A DNA stretch of 64,000 nt from Ignavibacteria bacterium (lineage in GTDB: Bacteria; Bacteroidota; Ignavibacteria; Tepidaquicellales; OLB5). The notes below the pieces were generated by a model. That model was not told the origin of the DNA. It ran no database searches and was given only the letters and a program-made list of their open reading frames with translations. Of this stretch, positions 12,505-60,563 are shown in pieces; within the stretch, counting starts at the first letter, position 1; each line of letters starts with the position of its first letter. The stretch is from positions 81,486 through 145,485 of the forward strand of contig JADZAP010000004.1 in the NCBI GenBank assembly GCA_020852705.1, read 5' to 3'. The translations under genes were made by a program, and so were the position numbers.

Positions 12505-13539
12505 ATGGATCTTTCTTTAATTGAACTAAATGCTCATTACAGCAAACTTCAAAACCTTCATATAAAATGGAAGGGGCAGGAAATTGCGATATTTGAAAGA
12601 CTTCATTCACACGGATCAGAGAGACTTATAGTAAGGTTAGTTTCAGAAGATAACACTTCATCAATTGGAATTGTAAGCAATAATTTAGCAGAGAACAAAG
12701 CTTTTATAAACTTTGGCAGGCATTTCAGGGATAAAGGATTAAATGTTCCCGAAATATATATTACAGATGCATCATTTGACAGTTATATACTTGAAGACCT
12801 TAATGATGAAACACTATTTAACAGAATTTCAGACGGAAGTGAGTTCAATGTAACAAAAGTTTCACTATATAAAAAGGTTATAGAAGAACTGCCCAAATTT
12901 CAGATTACCGCAGGGAAAGAAATAGATTTTAGTTATTGCTACCAATTTAATGAATTTGGCGAAGAAAATATAAAGTTTGATCTTGAATATTTCAAGAAAA
13001 GATTTTTAAATAATTTCTACAAAGGTGCTGCTGATATTGACAAGCTGAATAATGACCTAAATTTTTTAAAAGAGAAAATTACAGAATTACCCCGTCAGTT
13101 CTTTCTATACCGTGATTTTCAGTCAAGGAATGTAATGTTGAGGGAAAATATACCTTGGTTTATAGATTTCCAGTCAGGCAGAAAAGGTGCATTGCTGTAT
13201 GATATTGCTTCATTGTTATATGATGCAAAAGCTGATATTCCGCAAAATATCAGGGAAATTCTGCTTGAATATTATTTAGAAATAATTAAGCAATACGGCA
13301 TTAAAAATACAGAAATGCTTGGTTATCATTTTTGGTATTTTGCTGTTATTAGAATATTACAGGCAATGGGTGCTTATGGATATTTAGGAATAGTAAAAGG
13401 TAAACAAAGATTTCTTGAAAGCATTCCGTATGCATTGAAGAATATAAATTTTATTTTAAATAGCAGAATTGAAGGAAATGAACTTTTGTATCTTAAAAAG
13501 ATATTTAAAGAAATGCTTGATGCAAAAACAATAAAATAA
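12505..13539 (+). CDS. APH/choline-kinase-fold phosphotransferase, AmgK-like (possible MurNAc/GlcNAc anomeric kinase)
   Basis: 344 aa. Catalytic-loop motif YRDFQSRNVM followed by FIDFQSG resembles the HRDxHSRNLM...IDFQD pattern of AmgK-type kinases. Substrate is inferred only. Confidence 0.55.
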   Translation: MDLSLIELNAHYSKLQNLHIKWKGQEIAIFERLHSHGSERLIVRLVSEDNTSSIGIVSNNLAENKAFINFGRHFRDKGLNVPEIYITDASFDSYILEDLNDETLFNRISDGSEFNVTKVSLYKKVIEELPKFQITAGKEIDFSYCYQFNEFGEENIKFDLEYFKKRFLNNFYKGAADIDKLNNDLNFLKEKITELPRQFFLYRDFQSRNVMLRENIPWFIDFQSGRKGALLYDIASLLYDAKADIPQNIREILLEYYLEIIKQYGIKNTEMLGYHFWYFAVIRILQAMGAYGYLGIVKGKQRFLESIPYALKNINFILNSRIEGNELLYLKKIFKEMLDAKTIK

Positions 13540-19550: not shown

Positions 19551-19624
19551 TACCGGAGGAGGGACTTGAACCCCCGACCTGCGGATTATGATTCCGACGC
19601 TCTAACCACCTGAGCTACTCCGGC
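19551..19624 (-). tRNA. tRNA with CAU anticodon (elongator Met, or Ile2 if lysidine-modified)
   Basis: The reverse complement GCCGGAGTAGCTCAGGTGGTTAGAGCGTCGGAATCATAATCCGCAGGTCGGGGGTTCAAGTCCCTCCTCCGGTA folds as a cloverleaf. It has a 7-bp acceptor stem (G1-U72 wobble), GCTC/GAGC D stem, anticodon loop AUCAUAA, GGGGG/CCCTC T stem and TTCAAGT T loop. No CCA is encoded. It lacks initiator features. Confidence 0.85.
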
Positions 19625-21290: not shown

Positions 21291-21713
21291 TTATGCAACC
21301 TGCATCTGCTGAAACAATTCATTAACCGCTCCGATGATAGCTTCTCTTAACTGCACAAATTCCGGCTTTATTTTTATGCCGGTTTTCCTTTTGTCCGGCT
21401 TATTTGAACCGTTCTTAGCTATTGCAGCAGCAGAATTTTTTGAAATGATCTCGATGTCATACACGGTAGCAAGTTTCTTGCCTTTCTTTCTCATATCCTT
21501 TGTAACCGCTATTACTGAATTTTTACCTAATCGTTTCTTCTGAATGAAATCAACTACATCCTGCGGCGCAAAGAAGCTCTGTATTTCATATTCATTTAAT
21601 AAAGGAAACATATTCCATTTCCCGTATTGGCTTATGCCTGTTATAACGTTGTCGGTTAAGAGTTTCAATTCAACAGGTTCGCCGATATTAAATTCAAGTT
21701 TTGGATTATTCAT
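21291..21713 (-). CDS. Hypothetical small basic protein
   Basis: 140-aa ORF. The N-terminal ~95 aa look like a compact beta-rich domain, followed by a K-rich/Ala-rich linker and a terminal helix. No recognisable family. Confidence 0.5.
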   Translation of the reverse strand: MNNPKLEFNIGEPVELKLLTDNVITGISQYGKWNMFPLLNEYEIQSFFAPQDVVDFIQKKRLGKNSVIAVTKDMRKKGKKLATVYDIEIISKNSAAAIAKNGSNKPDKRKTGIKIKPEFVQLREAIIGAVNELFQQMQVA

Positions 21714-22255: not shown

Positions 22256-22888
22256 TCAATCAAATATTTTTAAGTAAGTTTTTGTAGGCATAACAATAAT
22301 AGAAACAAAATTATTAAATTTTACACATAATTCAAGTTCCGTTAGATCGATTGGCTTGAAATCACTATTAATATCGTTTTCGATATGACAGAATGATAAC
22401 GAAATACCTTTAAATCTGTTATTGGGTGAAAATGAATAATAATATCCTTTTAATTTTTCTATTTCGGAACTTATGACATTAAGAAATGGAAAGTCATAAA
22501 ATAATTTTATTTCAATTCCATATTTTACTGGTTGTATCCACAAAGCTTCACTATTGAACCAATCTCCGCATTGTTCATTAATTTCCTTTAAAGCTTTTTT
22601 TTCATGTTTATTCAAAATAGCAATATCAAACCTGTTTTTTGAATATTCACTCCTGTCGTTTTCACCTTTATAAAAGTAATGATATTCGGTAGTTAAAACA
22701 GGAATATTTACCTGATCTTTTTCTTTTTTTAGATATTTCTCTGTGTTTATTTCGAATGTGTCCTTATAACTTTTTATTAGATAGCTATATAAGCAACATT
22801 TAATATCACTCTCAGTCAAAAATTGAAAGGGATTTTGTTTATAATTATTTATAAATTCATTAATTGCATCAATTAATTTTTTATCCAT
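22256..22888 (-). CDS. Hypothetical protein with PD-(D/E)xK nuclease-like motif
   Basis: 210 aa. E68 (TTEYHY), D88 (RFDIAIL) and E126-I-K128 (YGIEIKL) sit in hydrophobic beta-strand contexts, as in restriction-endonuclease-fold proteins. This is motif-level evidence only. Confidence 0.45.
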   Translation of the reverse strand: MDKKLIDAINEFINNYKQNPFQFLTESDIKCCLYSYLIKSYKDTFEINTEKYLKKEKDQVNIPVLTTEYHYFYKGENDRSEYSKNRFDIAILNKHEKKALKEINEQCGDWFNSEALWIQPVKYGIEIKLFYDFPFLNVISSEIEKLKGYYYSFSPNNRFKGISLSFCHIENDINSDFKPIDLTELELCVKFNNFVSIIVMPTKTYLKIFD

Positions 22889-38296: not shown

Positions 38297-38980
38297 ATGA
38301 TGAAATACAAGCTTAAATTATTATTTGTTTTAACGGTATTTTTATTTTCATTTTTTATAAATTTAGCAGGATGTGTTAATTATGATCAGAATACAACTAT
38401 AAATGAAGATGGTTCCGGTTCAATGAAGATACATTATTGGAGCAGTATGAAGAATTTTTCGATGGGTACAGCTTTGGGGAAATTTGAGTTTGATGAAGAA
38501 AAAGCGAAAGACAAATATAAAAGTTCAAATACAGAAGTAACCAATATTAAAGTTGAAGATAAGTTAGACGACTCAACTAAAAATGTTTTTATAGAACTGA
38601 CATTTAAGGATATAAATAAATTAAACGATGCAAAAGGATTTGAGAGTGTAAAAGTAACATGGAAGGAAGTAACAGACGGCATGGAGCTTAAATACACACT
38701 GCTTATGGATACAACAGCTGCAAAAAATATCAGCGCAAGTAACTATACGATTACGTATGAGTTTAAAATGCCCTCAGAGGTAGTTTCAACAAACGGCACA
38801 AAAGATGGACAGACAATAAAATATAACTATTCCTTAGCTGATTTAAGCAAAGATATAGAAATGATAACAGTAGTAAAAAAATCAGACAGTAAATTTTGCG
38901 GACTTTTTGGAATAATTGCAGGATCAACGTTAATTGGATTTTCTTTTTACTCACAAAGAAGAAAAAGAAAAAATACATAA
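38297..38980 (+). CDS. Hypothetical lipoprotein with C-terminal motif-TM-basic tripartite tail
   Basis: 227 aa. N-terminal lipobox INLAGC. The C-terminus KFCGLFGIIAGSTLIGFSFYSQRRKRKNT is a short motif, a hydrophobic helix and a basic cluster. Confidence 0.6.
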   Translation: MMKYKLKLLFVLTVFLFSFFINLAGCVNYDQNTTINEDGSGSMKIHYWSSMKNFSMGTALGKFEFDEEKAKDKYKSSNTEVTNIKVEDKLDDSTKNVFIELTFKDINKLNDAKGFESVKVTWKEVTDGMELKYTLLMDTTAAKNISASNYTITYEFKMPSEVVSTNGTKDGQTIKYNYSLADLSKDIEMITVVKKSDSKFCGLFGIIAGSTLIGFSFYSQRRKRKNT

Positions 38981-48462: not shown

Positions 48463-49233
48463 ATGGCAAATAATAAATTAATAGTTGCAAACTGGAAAAT
48501 GAACAAAGGACTTGTTCAGTCACAGCAGTTTGCAGATGAAATGAAACTTTACCTTGAAAAGCACAAGGTAATTGAAGCAGATATTGTATTATGCCCTCCT
48601 TTCACCTCGCTTGATGCTGTTAATAAAAAAATTACAGGAACACAGATAAAGCTTGGAGCACAAAATATGTATTTTGAAACAATAGGAGCATATACAGGCG
48701 AAATTTCACCTGGTATGCTTAAATCCTGCGGATGCGAATATGTAATATTAGGTCACTCGGAACGGAGACAGTATTTTAACGAAACTAACGCAGTGGTAAA
48801 CAAAAAAGTTTTAATAGCTCTTGATGAAGGCTTGAAACCGATAGTATGTATTGGCGAAAATCTTCAGGAGCATGAAGATAAGTTAACTGAATCTGTAATA
48901 GATGAGCAAATAACTGCATGCTTATTACATGTAAGCGAAGAAGGCATTGCAAATGTAACAATAGCTTACGAACCCGTTTGGGCAATTGGCACCGGTAAAA
49001 ATGCAACAGCACATCAGGCAGAGAGTGTTCACAATTTTCTGCGTAAAAAAATCAAAAAAATGTATAACGAAGAAGTTTCAAAAAATATAAAGATAATTTA
49101 CGGAGGAAGCGTAACACCGGAAAATGCAAAAGAACTATTTACTCCTCAAACAATAAATGGCGGACTAATTGGGGGAGCATCTTTAGAAGCAGAAAAATTT
49201 ATAAAAATAATTAATGCATCAAATATTAAATAA
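48463..49233 (+). CDS. tpiA: Triosephosphate isomerase
   Basis: 256 aa. ANWKMN, GHSERR and AYEPVWAIGTG motifs. Confidence 0.9.
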   Translation: MANNKLIVANWKMNKGLVQSQQFADEMKLYLEKHKVIEADIVLCPPFTSLDAVNKKITGTQIKLGAQNMYFETIGAYTGEISPGMLKSCGCEYVILGHSERRQYFNETNAVVNKKVLIALDEGLKPIVCIGENLQEHEDKLTESVIDEQITACLLHVSEEGIANVTIAYEPVWAIGTGKNATAHQAESVHNFLRKKIKKMYNEEVSKNIKIIYGGSVTPENAKELFTPQTINGGLIGGASLEAEKFIKIINASNIK

Positions 49234-58354: not shown

Positions 58355-59440
58355 TTATCTTCTCATTTTGGGATCAAATGCATCACGCAAACCATCGCCA
58401 ATAAGATTAACAGCAAAAACAGTGAGCATAATTGCAATAGAAGGATACAATGCCAAACCGTAGTTTGTACCGGCAACAATATATTTGTAGCCATCAAAAA
58501 CCATTTGCCCCCAGCTTGCAGTTGGGGGCTGAACGCCTAGACCGAGAAAACTTAAACTTGCTTCAAAAATAATTGAAGTTGCAAGACCGGCAGTACCGGT
58601 AACTATTATTGGACCAATAGTATTTGGTAAAATATGCCTGAAAATTATTCTGGTTGACCTGTAACCAAGTGCCCGTGTTGCTTCAACATATTCAGTTTCA
58701 CGCAGAGAAAAGAATTGCCCTCTAACAATTCTGGCAATTTCAACCCAACCTGTTAAACCAATAGCAACAAAAGACTGCCAGAATCCTTTACCAAGTACAA
58801 CAGAAAGAGCAATGATGAATAAAATTGAAGGGAAAGACCAAATAACATTAATAAACCACATAATAACAGCATCAGTTTTACCTCTGTAATAACCTGCAAA
58901 AGCTCCTAGAATTACACCGATAAAAATTGCAATACTTTCTGAAATTACACCTACGGAAAGACTTATCCGGCTGCCATAGATTAGTCTGCTTAAAATATCT
59001 CTGCCGTATCTATCAGTACCAAGAAGGTAATGCGGTTCAATATGCCAATTGGATTCATCAGCATCAATAAGCTCTTTTTTTGGAATTGATTTGTTTGAGC
59101 CGCTGTAATTAACGAAAAAAACTGAATCTTGTGTAGTTTTGATTATCCTTTTAACCGGTATAAAATCAGTTCCATCAAGTGCCTTTTTGACAATTACATT
59201 ACCTGCAAAACCGGAGGGTTTTGTAGCATATTCCAAAGTTTGATCATCAGGGTCAAAAGGAGCAAGCAGAGGAGCGGATAGTGCAATAAAAATTAATAGA
59301 ATAAGAGTAAATAAACCAGCCATAGCAAGTTTATTACGTTTAAATCTTATCCAGGAATAATACCAAAGACTACGTGAAGCTTTTTGTTTTTCGGCTTCAG
59401 TAAAGCGGTCTTTATCTTTAAAAAAATCATTTTCCTGCAT
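58355..59440 (-). CDS. ABC transporter permease, OppC/DppC family
   Basis: 361 aa. N-terminal OppC_N-like TM, and the EAA-loop region EYVEATRALGYRSTRIIFRHILPN. Confidence 0.85.
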   Translation of the reverse strand: MQENDFFKDKDRFTEAEKQKASRSLWYYSWIRFKRNKLAMAGLFTLILLIFIALSAPLLAPFDPDDQTLEYATKPSGFAGNVIVKKALDGTDFIPVKRIIKTTQDSVFFVNYSGSNKSIPKKELIDADESNWHIEPHYLLGTDRYGRDILSRLIYGSRISLSVGVISESIAIFIGVILGAFAGYYRGKTDAVIMWFINVIWSFPSILFIIALSVVLGKGFWQSFVAIGLTGWVEIARIVRGQFFSLRETEYVEATRALGYRSTRIIFRHILPNTIGPIIVTGTAGLATSIIFEASLSFLGLGVQPPTASWGQMVFDGYKYIVAGTNYGLALYPSIAIMLTVFAVNLIGDGLRDAFDPKMRR

Positions 59441-59557
59441 AATTTTGCTAAATATACCGAAAAATCATAAGATTATCAAAACCAATTGATAAAGACAAAT
59501 CAATTTGAATAAAACAATAAAAATTACAAATTATTGAAATTTTTTTTGAATAAGAGG

Positions 59558-59566
59558 TGTTACATA
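59558..59566 (+). promoter_or_regulatory. Possible extended -10 promoter element (TGtTACATA) for the candidate sRNA
   Basis: TG at 59558-59559 and TACATA at 59561-59566 place a predicted start ~6-7 nt downstream, at the first base of the closing stem. No convincing -35 at canonical spacing. Confidence 0.3.
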
Positions 59567-59571
59567 TAACA

Positions 59572-59718
59572 GGCAGGCTGCGGGATAGTATCATAAAAGA
59601 AACAAAATAGCTGCTCACCTAAACTGCCTCCTGGTGAGGGCAAGTGAAATCGCAGGACTCGCTGATTTCCTCCTGTATTGTTTTCTCCTTTAGAACCCGC
59701 AGTTTGCCGATTTTTTTT
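59572..59718 (+). ncRNA. Candidate structured small RNA (unassigned family)
   Basis: GGCAGGCUGCGGG (59572-59584) pairs over 13 bp with CCCGCAGUUUGCC (59696-59708), followed by GA and U8. An imperfect inner helix AGAAACAAAAUAG pairs with CUGUAUUGUUUUCU. There are two hairpins: CUCACC/GGUGAG at 59614-59638 and AAAUCGC/GCuGAUUU at 59647-59668. A second terminator lies just downstream. No co-oriented ORF follows. Confidence 0.4.
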
Positions 59719-59724
59719 CATGCT

Positions 59725-59758
59725 AAACCCGAAAGATATAACTATCTTTCGGGTTTTT
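59725..59758 (+). terminator. Strong Rho-independent terminator
   Basis: 14-bp perfect stem aaacccgaaagata/tatctttcgggttt with a 4-nt loop, followed by a T-run on the plus strand only. Confidence 0.75.
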
Positions 59759-59801
59759 ATATTTATAATAACAAAAATAGAATTTGATAGTGAAAAAATG
59801 T

Positions 59802-60563
59802 TTATAACAGATATTTTTTTGCCCATACAGCAATTATGTTTCCAACATAAAAGGCATCATTTTTATTGAGCATTAAATGGTCAATATTATCAAGCGAAAT
59901 GAAGCTTTTGGGCTGGTTTGCCTGAGAGAATAATTTTAAGCCATTTTCAATTCCGCTGTAAGTATCGGCAGTAGAGTGCATAGCAAGATATGGCAAATGG
60001 ATGCCTTTTTGCAGCTCTGCTGCATTGTATTTTTCAATATCAGCAAAAAATTGCGGTTTAAAATTGAATTTAATACCTCCAATTTCAGTTTCAGCAACAC
60101 CCGTTTTAATGCTTTGCATTTTTGTATTTCTAAGTTTAATTGACATATTAGAAGGTTCAGCCGGTGCAGCAATAGTAACAAGTGCTTTTGGTGAATATAA
60201 TTTTGCAGAAGCAAATAAAATGGCTGCACCCCCAAGTGAATGTCCAATTAAGAGCTTTGGGGCAGAGTAATTGCGTTCAAGAAAATTTGCGGCAGATATA
60301 ACATCATCAATTTGGGTGGTAAAGTTAGAATCAGGAAAGCTTCCCTGACTGGAGCCGATACCGGTCATATCAAAGCGAAGCACTGCAATACCCTGTTTAG
60401 TTAAAGAACGGTTAATATTTGCAATTGCTTTTAATTTCATAGAGCAGGTAAAACAATGAGCAAATACTGCATAGGATGAGATATTTTCAGCAGAAGGTAA
60501 ATCAATTTCACCTGCAAGGGTAATATTTTTTGAATTTTTAAAATTTACTTCAATTGTTTTCAT
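59802..60563 (-). CDS. Alpha/beta hydrolase
   Basis: 253 aa. GHSLGG nucleophile elbow, an HCFTC region, and a C-terminal DH motif. Confidence 0.8.
   Translation of the reverse strand: MKTIEVNFKNSKNITLAGEIDLPSAENISSYAVFAHCFTCSMKLKAIANINRSLTKQGIAVLRFDMTGIGSSQGSFPDSNFTTQIDDVISAANFLERNYSAPKLLIGHSLGGAAILFASAKLYSPKALVTIAAPAEPSNMSIKLRNTKMQSIKTGVAETEIGGIKFNFKPQFFADIEKYNAAELQKGIHLPYLAMHSTADTYSGIENGLKLFSQANQPKSFISLDNIDHLMLNKNDAFYVGNIIAVWAKKYLL

Follow-up and report, generated by a model that had tools for sequence, protein, structure and literature searches.

We identified a structured small RNA (sRNA) gene of about 147 nt at 59572-59718, plus strand, in DNA from an Ignavibacteria bacterium (GCA_020852705.1, contig JADZAP010000004.1, positions 81,486-145,485 of the forward strand; this stretch of 64,000 nt is referred to below as the window). 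Conservation and covariation across at least 33 homologous loci settle that the element is beyond chance, and we are highly confident that it is a real and independent plus-strand gene for a structured RNA. The features described in an earlier note on this DNA all occur where it placed them. The note had also arrived at an independent sRNA gene; compensatory changes, a strand bias in G-U pairs, a promoter-like block and two terminators of plus polarity bear it out. The best reading of the RNA, at about 0.5, is a trans-acting base-pairing sRNA with redundant seeds that resemble the anti-Shine-Dalgarno (anti-SD) sequence, a mechanism that we infer.

Genomic location and gene neighborhood

The gene occupies an intergenic gap of 361 bp between two minus-strand genes, where a plus-strand element in a gap of about 360 bp had been noted before. 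The features of the locus are as follows.

58355-59440, minus: OppC-type ABC permease gene (Pfam BPD_transp_1 and OppC_N)
59534-59539, plus: -35-like TTGAAA followed by a T-rich tract; position conserved in 24 homologs, putative promoter element
59558-59563, plus: -10-like TGTTAC (TGTTAY in the family), in nearly all homologs; the next 7-8 nt vary
59572-59584, plus: 5' strand of helix P1, GGCAGGCUGCGGG, pairing with 59696-59708; 9 of 13 pairs change on both sides among 28 distinct sequences
59585-59609, plus: joining region J1/2, A-rich, with a variable 12-nt insertion; indel-rich in alignments
59610-59641, plus: P2 hairpin, stem 59610-59619 with 59633-59641; 7 of 10 stem pairs change on both sides
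59646-59669, plus: P3 hairpin predicted by RNAalifold, GAAAUCG...UGAUUUC with a variable loop; 2 of 7 pairs covary
59664-59693, plus: invariant 30-nt tract GAUUUCCUCCUGUAUUGUUUUCUCCUUUAG, holding the second CCUCCUG motif (59669-59675) and CUCCUUU(AG)
59696-59718, plus: terminator 1, the 3' strand of P1 (CCCGCAGUUUGCC) with GA and U8; a U-run follows P1 in the homologs, interrupted in a few
59719-59726, plus: linker CAUGCUAA between the terminators; CATGCT nearly invariant in 18 sequences (one CATGTT)
59725-59762, plus: terminator 2, a 14-bp hairpin (59725-59756) with a U-run, found by terminator scan
59802-60563, minus: alpha/beta hydrolase gene

Both flanking genes are on the strand opposite the sRNA, and the plus strand continues through the two terminators into a convergent gene. 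No plus-strand ORF lies downstream of the sRNA. Because no gene follows it on the same strand, the sRNA is not a leader or riboswitch, roles that had been thought unlikely from the start. A riboswitch or 5' leader was rejected for either direction of reading, since the plus strand runs into the convergent gene and the permease on the minus strand has a promoter-like motif of its own.

The permease gene has no SD sequence. Upstream of it on the minus strand, in the region 59441-59481, is a promoter-like motif of the Bacteroidetes type that is conserved in relatives: TTTG (59480 to 59477), N20, TATATTTAG (59456 to 59448) and 8 nt to the ATG. The arrangement suggests that the permease mRNA is nearly leaderless. 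With this motif next to the ATG, the permease transcript should start downstream of the sRNA element, so the sRNA does not belong to the leader of the permease. The stretch that separates the divergent permease and sRNA promoters contains a perfect inverted repeat at 59470-59489 (TTATCAA-N6-TTGATAA). The homologs lack this repeat, and it is therefore probably not a shared operator.

Secondary structure and covariation

The 147-nt plus strand has a predicted minimum free energy of -46.5 kcal/mol, which corresponds to z = -2.9 when dinucleotide shuffles are the reference; its complement also folds, more weakly (-41.7, z = -1.9). The closing helix P1 has 13 bp, two of them G-U, and is followed by GA and T8 (59709-59718), just as the earlier note had described for 59572-59584 and 59696-59708. 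The two internal hairpins that it had described were also recovered: RNAalifold, given a structure-blind MAFFT alignment of 20 sequences, returned P1, a 10-bp P2 and a 7-bp P3, with double-sided changes in 12 of the 30 pairs.

A second alignment, of 28 distinct sequences, was fitted to the covariance model and hence is not structure-blind. In it 96.3% of the cells pair, compared with 28-42% when partners are slid by 1-3 columns, and 18 of 30 pairs change on both sides; none of 500 shuffles reached the observed values. The covariation is carried by P1 and P2 (16 of 23 pairs double-sided), so that the homolog collection and covariation analysis proposed earlier as a check yielded compensatory changes in both helices. 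P3 shows little covariation because its stem is nearly invariant. A possible interaction between CUGCC in the P2 loop and GGCAG at the 5' end was considered and rejected, as a change of the 5' end to GACAG is compensated by the 3' strand of P1 and not by the loop.

An imperfect internal helix had been proposed in addition to the two hairpins. Within J1/2, GAAACAA (59599-59605) can form 7 bp with UUGUUUU of the invariant tract, and this helix is compatible with most of the sequences. The pairing potential thus exists, with one-sided consistent changes and no covariation, since the 3' strand of the helix never varies.

The direction of transcription is indicated by the G-U pairs, which become A-C mismatches when read on the minus strand. 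There are 80 G-U cells, and pairing falls from 96.3% on the plus strand to 87.7% on the minus strand. Together with the plus polarity of both T-runs, these place the RNA on the plus strand.

Invariant pyrimidine tracts

None of the 30 nt of GAUUUCCUCCUGUAUUGUUUUCUCCUUUAG differs among the 20 sequences collected by way of the permease protein, a set chosen by a neighboring protein and so an unbiased sample with respect to the RNA. When all 27 distinct full-length sequences (the window's included) are considered, a 24-nt run of this tract is invariant in every one, and 23% of the other columns are invariant. The core of the P2 loop, UGCCUCCU (also given as TGCCTCCT), is likewise invariant. The loop itself has about 13 nt, UAAACUGCCUCCU(G), and holds the first CCUCCUG motif (59627-59633).

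In all, the RNA has three pyrimidine-rich tracts. One CCUCCUG is in the P2 loop and another directly follows P3 on its 3' side; the third tract, CUCCUUU, comes after a spacer of nine nucleotides. Accessibility was estimated by partition-function folding of each homolog. The mean probability of being unpaired was 0.81 for motif 1, 0.61 for motif 2, 0.63 for CUCCUUUAG and 0.47 for the spacer, against 0.42 for the whole RNA. The two CCTCCTG heptamers that had first drawn attention to the element, at 59627-59633 and 59669-59675, are thus invariant and predicted to be mostly unpaired. CCTCCTG occurs seven times in the window, where 2.6 copies are expected, and two of the seven are within the sRNA. 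A conserved region that is predicted to be accessible (0.61-0.81 for the motifs) is what is looked for as a seed in a base-pairing sRNA.

Promoter-like block and terminators

A block of the form TTGAAA-N18-TGTTAY, followed by 7-8 AT-rich nucleotides, precedes P1 in essentially all homologs. The -35-like sequence varies (TTGAAA, GTGAAA, GTGCAA or ATGCAA) and stands 17-18 nt upstream of TGTTAY. Of the extended -10 sequence TGtTACATA suggested in the earlier note, TGTTAY proved to be conserved and the downstream "TACATA" half did not. From the geometry, and from covariation at the second pair of P1, we infer a transcription start at about 59572. When the upstream alignment was compared by eye with a sigma-54 promoter and with a promoter of the Bacteroidetes type (-33 TTTG / -7 TAnnTTTG), both were rejected for the sRNA, because their spacing and conserved bases do not fit.

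Two 3' ends are predicted: the U-run at 59718, for an RNA of about 147 nt, and, as the alternative, the second terminator near 59760, for one of about 190 nt. Terminator 1 is the sole terminator in the most divergent members of the family (L015, L085, L102, L134 and L097). Terminator 2 is present in most homologs and absent from the most divergent ones; 10 of its 14 pairs change on both sides among 18 homologs. The terminator scan found its T-run on the plus strand only, in agreement with the polarity first assigned to it. The CAUGCU(A)A linker between the two terminators is nearly invariant although it lies outside the core RNA. No conserved ORF starts from the antisense ATG of the linker among the homologs. 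The element thus has the general features of an sRNA gene: it is intergenic, has a promoter-like block of putative activity and intrinsic terminators, and is without an ORF on the same strand.

Distribution of the sRNA

With the permease protein as query, 80 loci were obtained; almost all of them are from metagenome-assembled genomes (MAGs) labelled Ignavibacteria, Chlorobi or Kapaibacteria. With blastn and a covariance model built in the present analysis (R1), the element was found upstream of the permease gene in 19 genome loci (L001-L018 and L028), in all of which the permease is at least 82% identical. The covariance model did not find it upstream of the permease in relatives with 77-81% permease identity (one of these, L020, has only about 160 nt of upstream sequence to search), and it had no match anywhere in the other 60 loci.

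Metagenomes were scanned with a pattern of the two CU tracts in which the spacer was left free. The scan matched 89 stretches; among the 80 matches listed, 66 were due to chance and 14 were true homologs. The spacer between the CU tracts is 9 nt in all 14 of these homologs. All 14 loci have the permease and dprA on one side and, wherever the contig reaches, the hydrolase on the other. One of the metagenome contigs (L096, WBZR01002129.1) is identical or nearly identical to the window across the sRNA region. A scan of viral contigs for the invariant 20-mer gave nothing. In total, homologs occur at no fewer than 33 further loci (19 from genomes and at least 14 from metagenomes), in Ignavibacteria MAGs and metagenomes, and the sRNA is known so far only from one Ignavibacteria clade and one syntenic locus. 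Over the same set of homologs, the identity of the neighboring hydrolase falls to 53%.

The surroundings of the permease gene differ among the relatives. Within the RNA-bearing clade, the permease gene is on its own, has a separate promoter and is followed by dprA. In four more distant relatives (L025, L029, L030 and L032), the OppC-type permease gene directly follows another permease-like ORF, an operon arrangement. Insertions resembling GC-rich palindromic repeats, such as CCCCTCTCCTCTTGGGAGAGGGGCTGGGGGGTGAGGGG, are found between the permease start and the RNA promoter in L012, L020, L097 and L134, where they break up an otherwise AT-rich intergenic region.

Comparison with known RNA families and coding potential

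Comparison with Rfam had been proposed as a first check on the novelty of the element, and no Rfam 15 family matches it in the window or in seven homologs. Specifically, cmscan of the window at the gathering threshold gave no match at the element, and cmscan of 59400-59850 at E <= 10 and of the seven homologous loci at E <= 5 gave only chance-level matches to terminator-like parts. The alpha-r14/NfeR1 model had no match at the element under any of these three settings. Models of the 6S type, including 6S-Flavo, also failed to match the element in the window or the seven homologs (E <= 10 and E <= 5, respectively), and the fold, with two adjacent hairpins inside P1, is unlike that of 6S RNA, as had been remarked before. 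The only match in the window at the gathering level is a tRNA gene at 19551-19624, minus strand (Rfam tRNA, 63.8 bits, anticodon loop CAU).

The element is non-coding on both strands. On the plus strand, one-nucleotide indels in the alignment break the sense frames. As for the minus strand, its ORFs do not keep to one frame across the invariant block but use three, and many are truncated; in many homologs they amount to 2-10 amino acids or have no ATG within 30 nt of the block. A GGA sponge of the CsrB/RsmZ type was also rejected, as the GGA motifs are confined to the minus strand and the RNA is assigned to the plus strand by its G-U pairs and the polarity of its terminators. A search of the literature found nothing relevant on sRNAs of Ignavibacteria. 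In view of this and of its absence from Rfam, we regard the element as a new RNA family.

Shine-Dalgarno usage and search for targets

The anti-SD-like motifs had led to the suggestion that the sRNA occludes ribosome-binding sites, on the premise that genes in the window carry sites of the GGAG type. This premise did not hold. A match to the 16S tail with dG <= -6 precedes 6 of the 52 gene starts, which is the background expected from random 22-mers (10.3%); the starts were taken from the longest ORFs in the window, so that a few start codons may be wrong. Upstream of most starts in the window the sequence is A/T-rich, as it is in Bacteroidetes. Genes at 21291-21713 (minus), 38297-38980 (plus), 12505-13539 (plus) and 48463-49233 (plus) belong to the six exceptions, whose products include triosephosphate isomerase, a kinase of the APH family and a protein with an LppM domain.

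The 52 initiation regions of the window show no enrichment of predicted pairing with the invariant tract (p = 0.95), and a sliding RNAduplex scan placed the top sites of the window inside genes. The best of these, 22650 on the minus strand (UAAAGGUGAAAACGACAGGAGUGAAU, 22630-22670, within the ORF 22256-22888), is nearly complementary to the tract and forms a duplex of -27.1 kcal/mol. It is not significant, since shuffled seeds reach -24.5 to -29.4 in the window. The adjacent genes (permease, hydrolase, dprA and SRAP) were rejected as targets, having neither SD-like sequence nor notable complementarity.

Of the trans-acting, site-occluding sRNA first envisaged, the sRNA gene therefore stands. 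Given SD usage at background, no enrichment at initiation regions and a best site at the level of shuffled seeds, it is unlikely that the sRNA occludes ribosome-binding sites in general. It may act on a small regulon whose rare sites are SD-bearing or purine-rich, or may have a role other than pairing. As the genome has several megabases, the absence of a target within the window does not decide the question.

Proposed function and alternative explanations

P1 (13 bp) closes the RNA, encloses P2 and P3, and doubles as the stem of the predicted terminator. In the mechanism that we propose, the three exposed pyrimidine-rich tracts would act as redundant anti-SD-like seeds, pairing in trans with purine tracts of the GGAGG or AAGGAG type in a limited set of mRNAs. 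Such pairing may block initiation or alter mRNA stability, as NfeR1 and AbcR do in the alpha-proteobacteria. Because most genes in the window have no SD sequence, the regulon would consist of a few tract-bearing genes and not of ribosome-binding sites in general. Base pairing is favored by the invariance of the 30-nt tract in the protein-ascertained sequences, while the stems turn over and the hydrolase diverges, and by the predicted accessibility of the motifs, which exceeds that of the RNA overall. There is also the precedent of NfeR1, with its three redundant ultraconserved anti-SD motifs (PMC10746234). Set against this are the lack of a significant target within the 64-kb window, the scarcity of the obvious class of targets where SD-like motifs are at background, and the use of a long-range helix as a terminator stem, which is unusual. 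In addition, absolute invariance over 24-30 nt is more than a short seed usually needs, and would also fit a surface contacted by a protein or the ribosome.

In a different explanation, the CCUCCU tracts imitate the 3' tail of 16S rRNA and the RNA is a decoy directed at a protein or the ribosome. It would titrate a factor that recognizes the anti-SD, or be a competitor of the ribosome for those few mRNAs that have an SD sequence. Candidate partners are proteins of the bS21/bS18/bS6 pocket, a binder of single-stranded pyrimidines of the RRM or S1 type, and an anti-SD-targeting nuclease or toxin. Three exposed motif copies on a stable scaffold are the architecture of CsrB/RsmZ and CrcZ, and the invariance extends over 24-30 nt, with the spacer included. 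SD usage in the window is at background, as in Bacteroidetes, and no mRNA target is detectable there. The motif ends in G (CCUCCUG), however, whereas the 16S tail ends in UUUCU, and restriction to one clade and one locus would be odd for the partner of a universal ribosomal feature. The partner proteins are hypothetical candidates, and both the 3' end of the organism's 16S rRNA and bS21 lie outside the window. We consider a decoy rather unlikely. The proposal that the sRNA is a mimic of the anti-SD tail that, in a lineage with little SD pairing, controls a specialized mode of SD-dependent translation, by capturing a few SD-bearing mRNAs or by titrating an anti-SD binder of the bS21/bS18 type, is distinctly improbable. 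If it were true, anti-SD availability would be regulated at the level of RNA, for which no description is known to us.

A divergent housekeeping RNA that the Rfam models miss, for example a 6S-like regulator of RNA polymerase, would fit the size of about 150-190 nt and the long closing helix, inside which large unpaired joining regions flank a structured domain. The sequence of 6S RNA is poorly conserved; its fold is rod-like, with a large central bubble between the closing and apical stems. The interior of the present RNA has instead two side-by-side hairpins and no apical stem beyond a central bubble, and neither 6S, 6S-Flavo nor any other Rfam model matches the element in the window or in seven homologs even at a permissive E. 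The element is also missing at this locus in relatives whose permease is 77-80% identical, and is found in one syntenic position, which makes a housekeeping RNA very unlikely. To a functional minus strand we give almost no credence. It could be the 5' leader of the permease, upstream of which the element lies, a sponge of the CsrA type (CAGGAGG, AAGGAG; GGA) or a small-protein gene; two CAGGAGG and one AAAGGAG are present, the strand has a fold of its own, and in some genomes ORFs of 53-70 amino acids begin at the antisense ATG of the linker. These ORFs lie in three frames and are often truncated or without a nearby ATG, and the lower fraction of paired cells, the polarity of both T-runs and the promoter-like motif that the permease has 8 nt before its ATG all speak for the plus strand.

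Relationship to known regulatory systems

For the base-pairing sRNA that we favor, the closest parallel is NfeR1 (alpha-r14) of Sinorhizobium, in which three identical ultraconserved anti-SD motifs, CCUCCUCCC, lie in unpaired regions among variable stems. Redundantly, these motifs base-pair with the ribosome-binding sites of mRNAs, which are thereby silenced (PMC10746234). Like NfeR1 and the related AbcR1/2, the Ignavibacteria RNA is about 120-150 nt long and has several ultraconserved, unpaired, anti-SD-like CU motifs with differing stems. The two show no similarity in sequence or model. CCUCCUCCC, present three times in NfeR1, is absent here, where the motifs are CCUCCUG twice and CUCCUUU. 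NfeR1 has three motif hairpins, while in the present RNA one motif is in a hairpin loop, two share one 30-nt invariant strand, and the whole is closed by a long-range helix that doubles as a terminator stem. The hosts differ as well, the alpha-proteobacteria being SD-rich and this Ignavibacteria lineage SD-poor. The resemblance to NfeR1 is one of design, not of descent.

In the Firmicutes, RsaE/RoxS and FsrA use exposed C-rich loops or linkers as redundant seeds against G-rich SD regions. The Ignavibacteria RNA would share with them exposed pyrimidine-rich seeds; motif, fold and phylum differ, and there is no Rfam match. CsrB/RsmZ sequester CsrA, and CrcZ sequesters Hfq/Crc. These RNAs, too, combine a terminator with a stable scaffold whose loops and single strands present a short repeated motif. 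Their motifs are GGA or A-rich, unlike the ones described here, where GGA is confined to the minus strand.

In Bacteroidetes, bS21, bS18 and bS6 sequester the anti-SD, and strong SD sequences are retained in only a few genes, rpsU and rpsR among them (PMC7797042). The background level of SD usage in the window is similar, and the tracts of the RNA resemble the anti-SD of 16S rRNA. The Bacteroidetes system works without an sRNA, and a link between the two is speculation.

The covariation, strand assignment, promoter-like block and terminators are support enough to seed a new RNA family. Ignavibacteria of this group are abundant in wastewater and anammox reactors, so existing metatranscriptomes could confirm expression of the sRNA and the conditions that induce it. 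The finding raises the question of what anti-SD-like seeds pair with, or bind, in bacteria that make little use of SD sequences.
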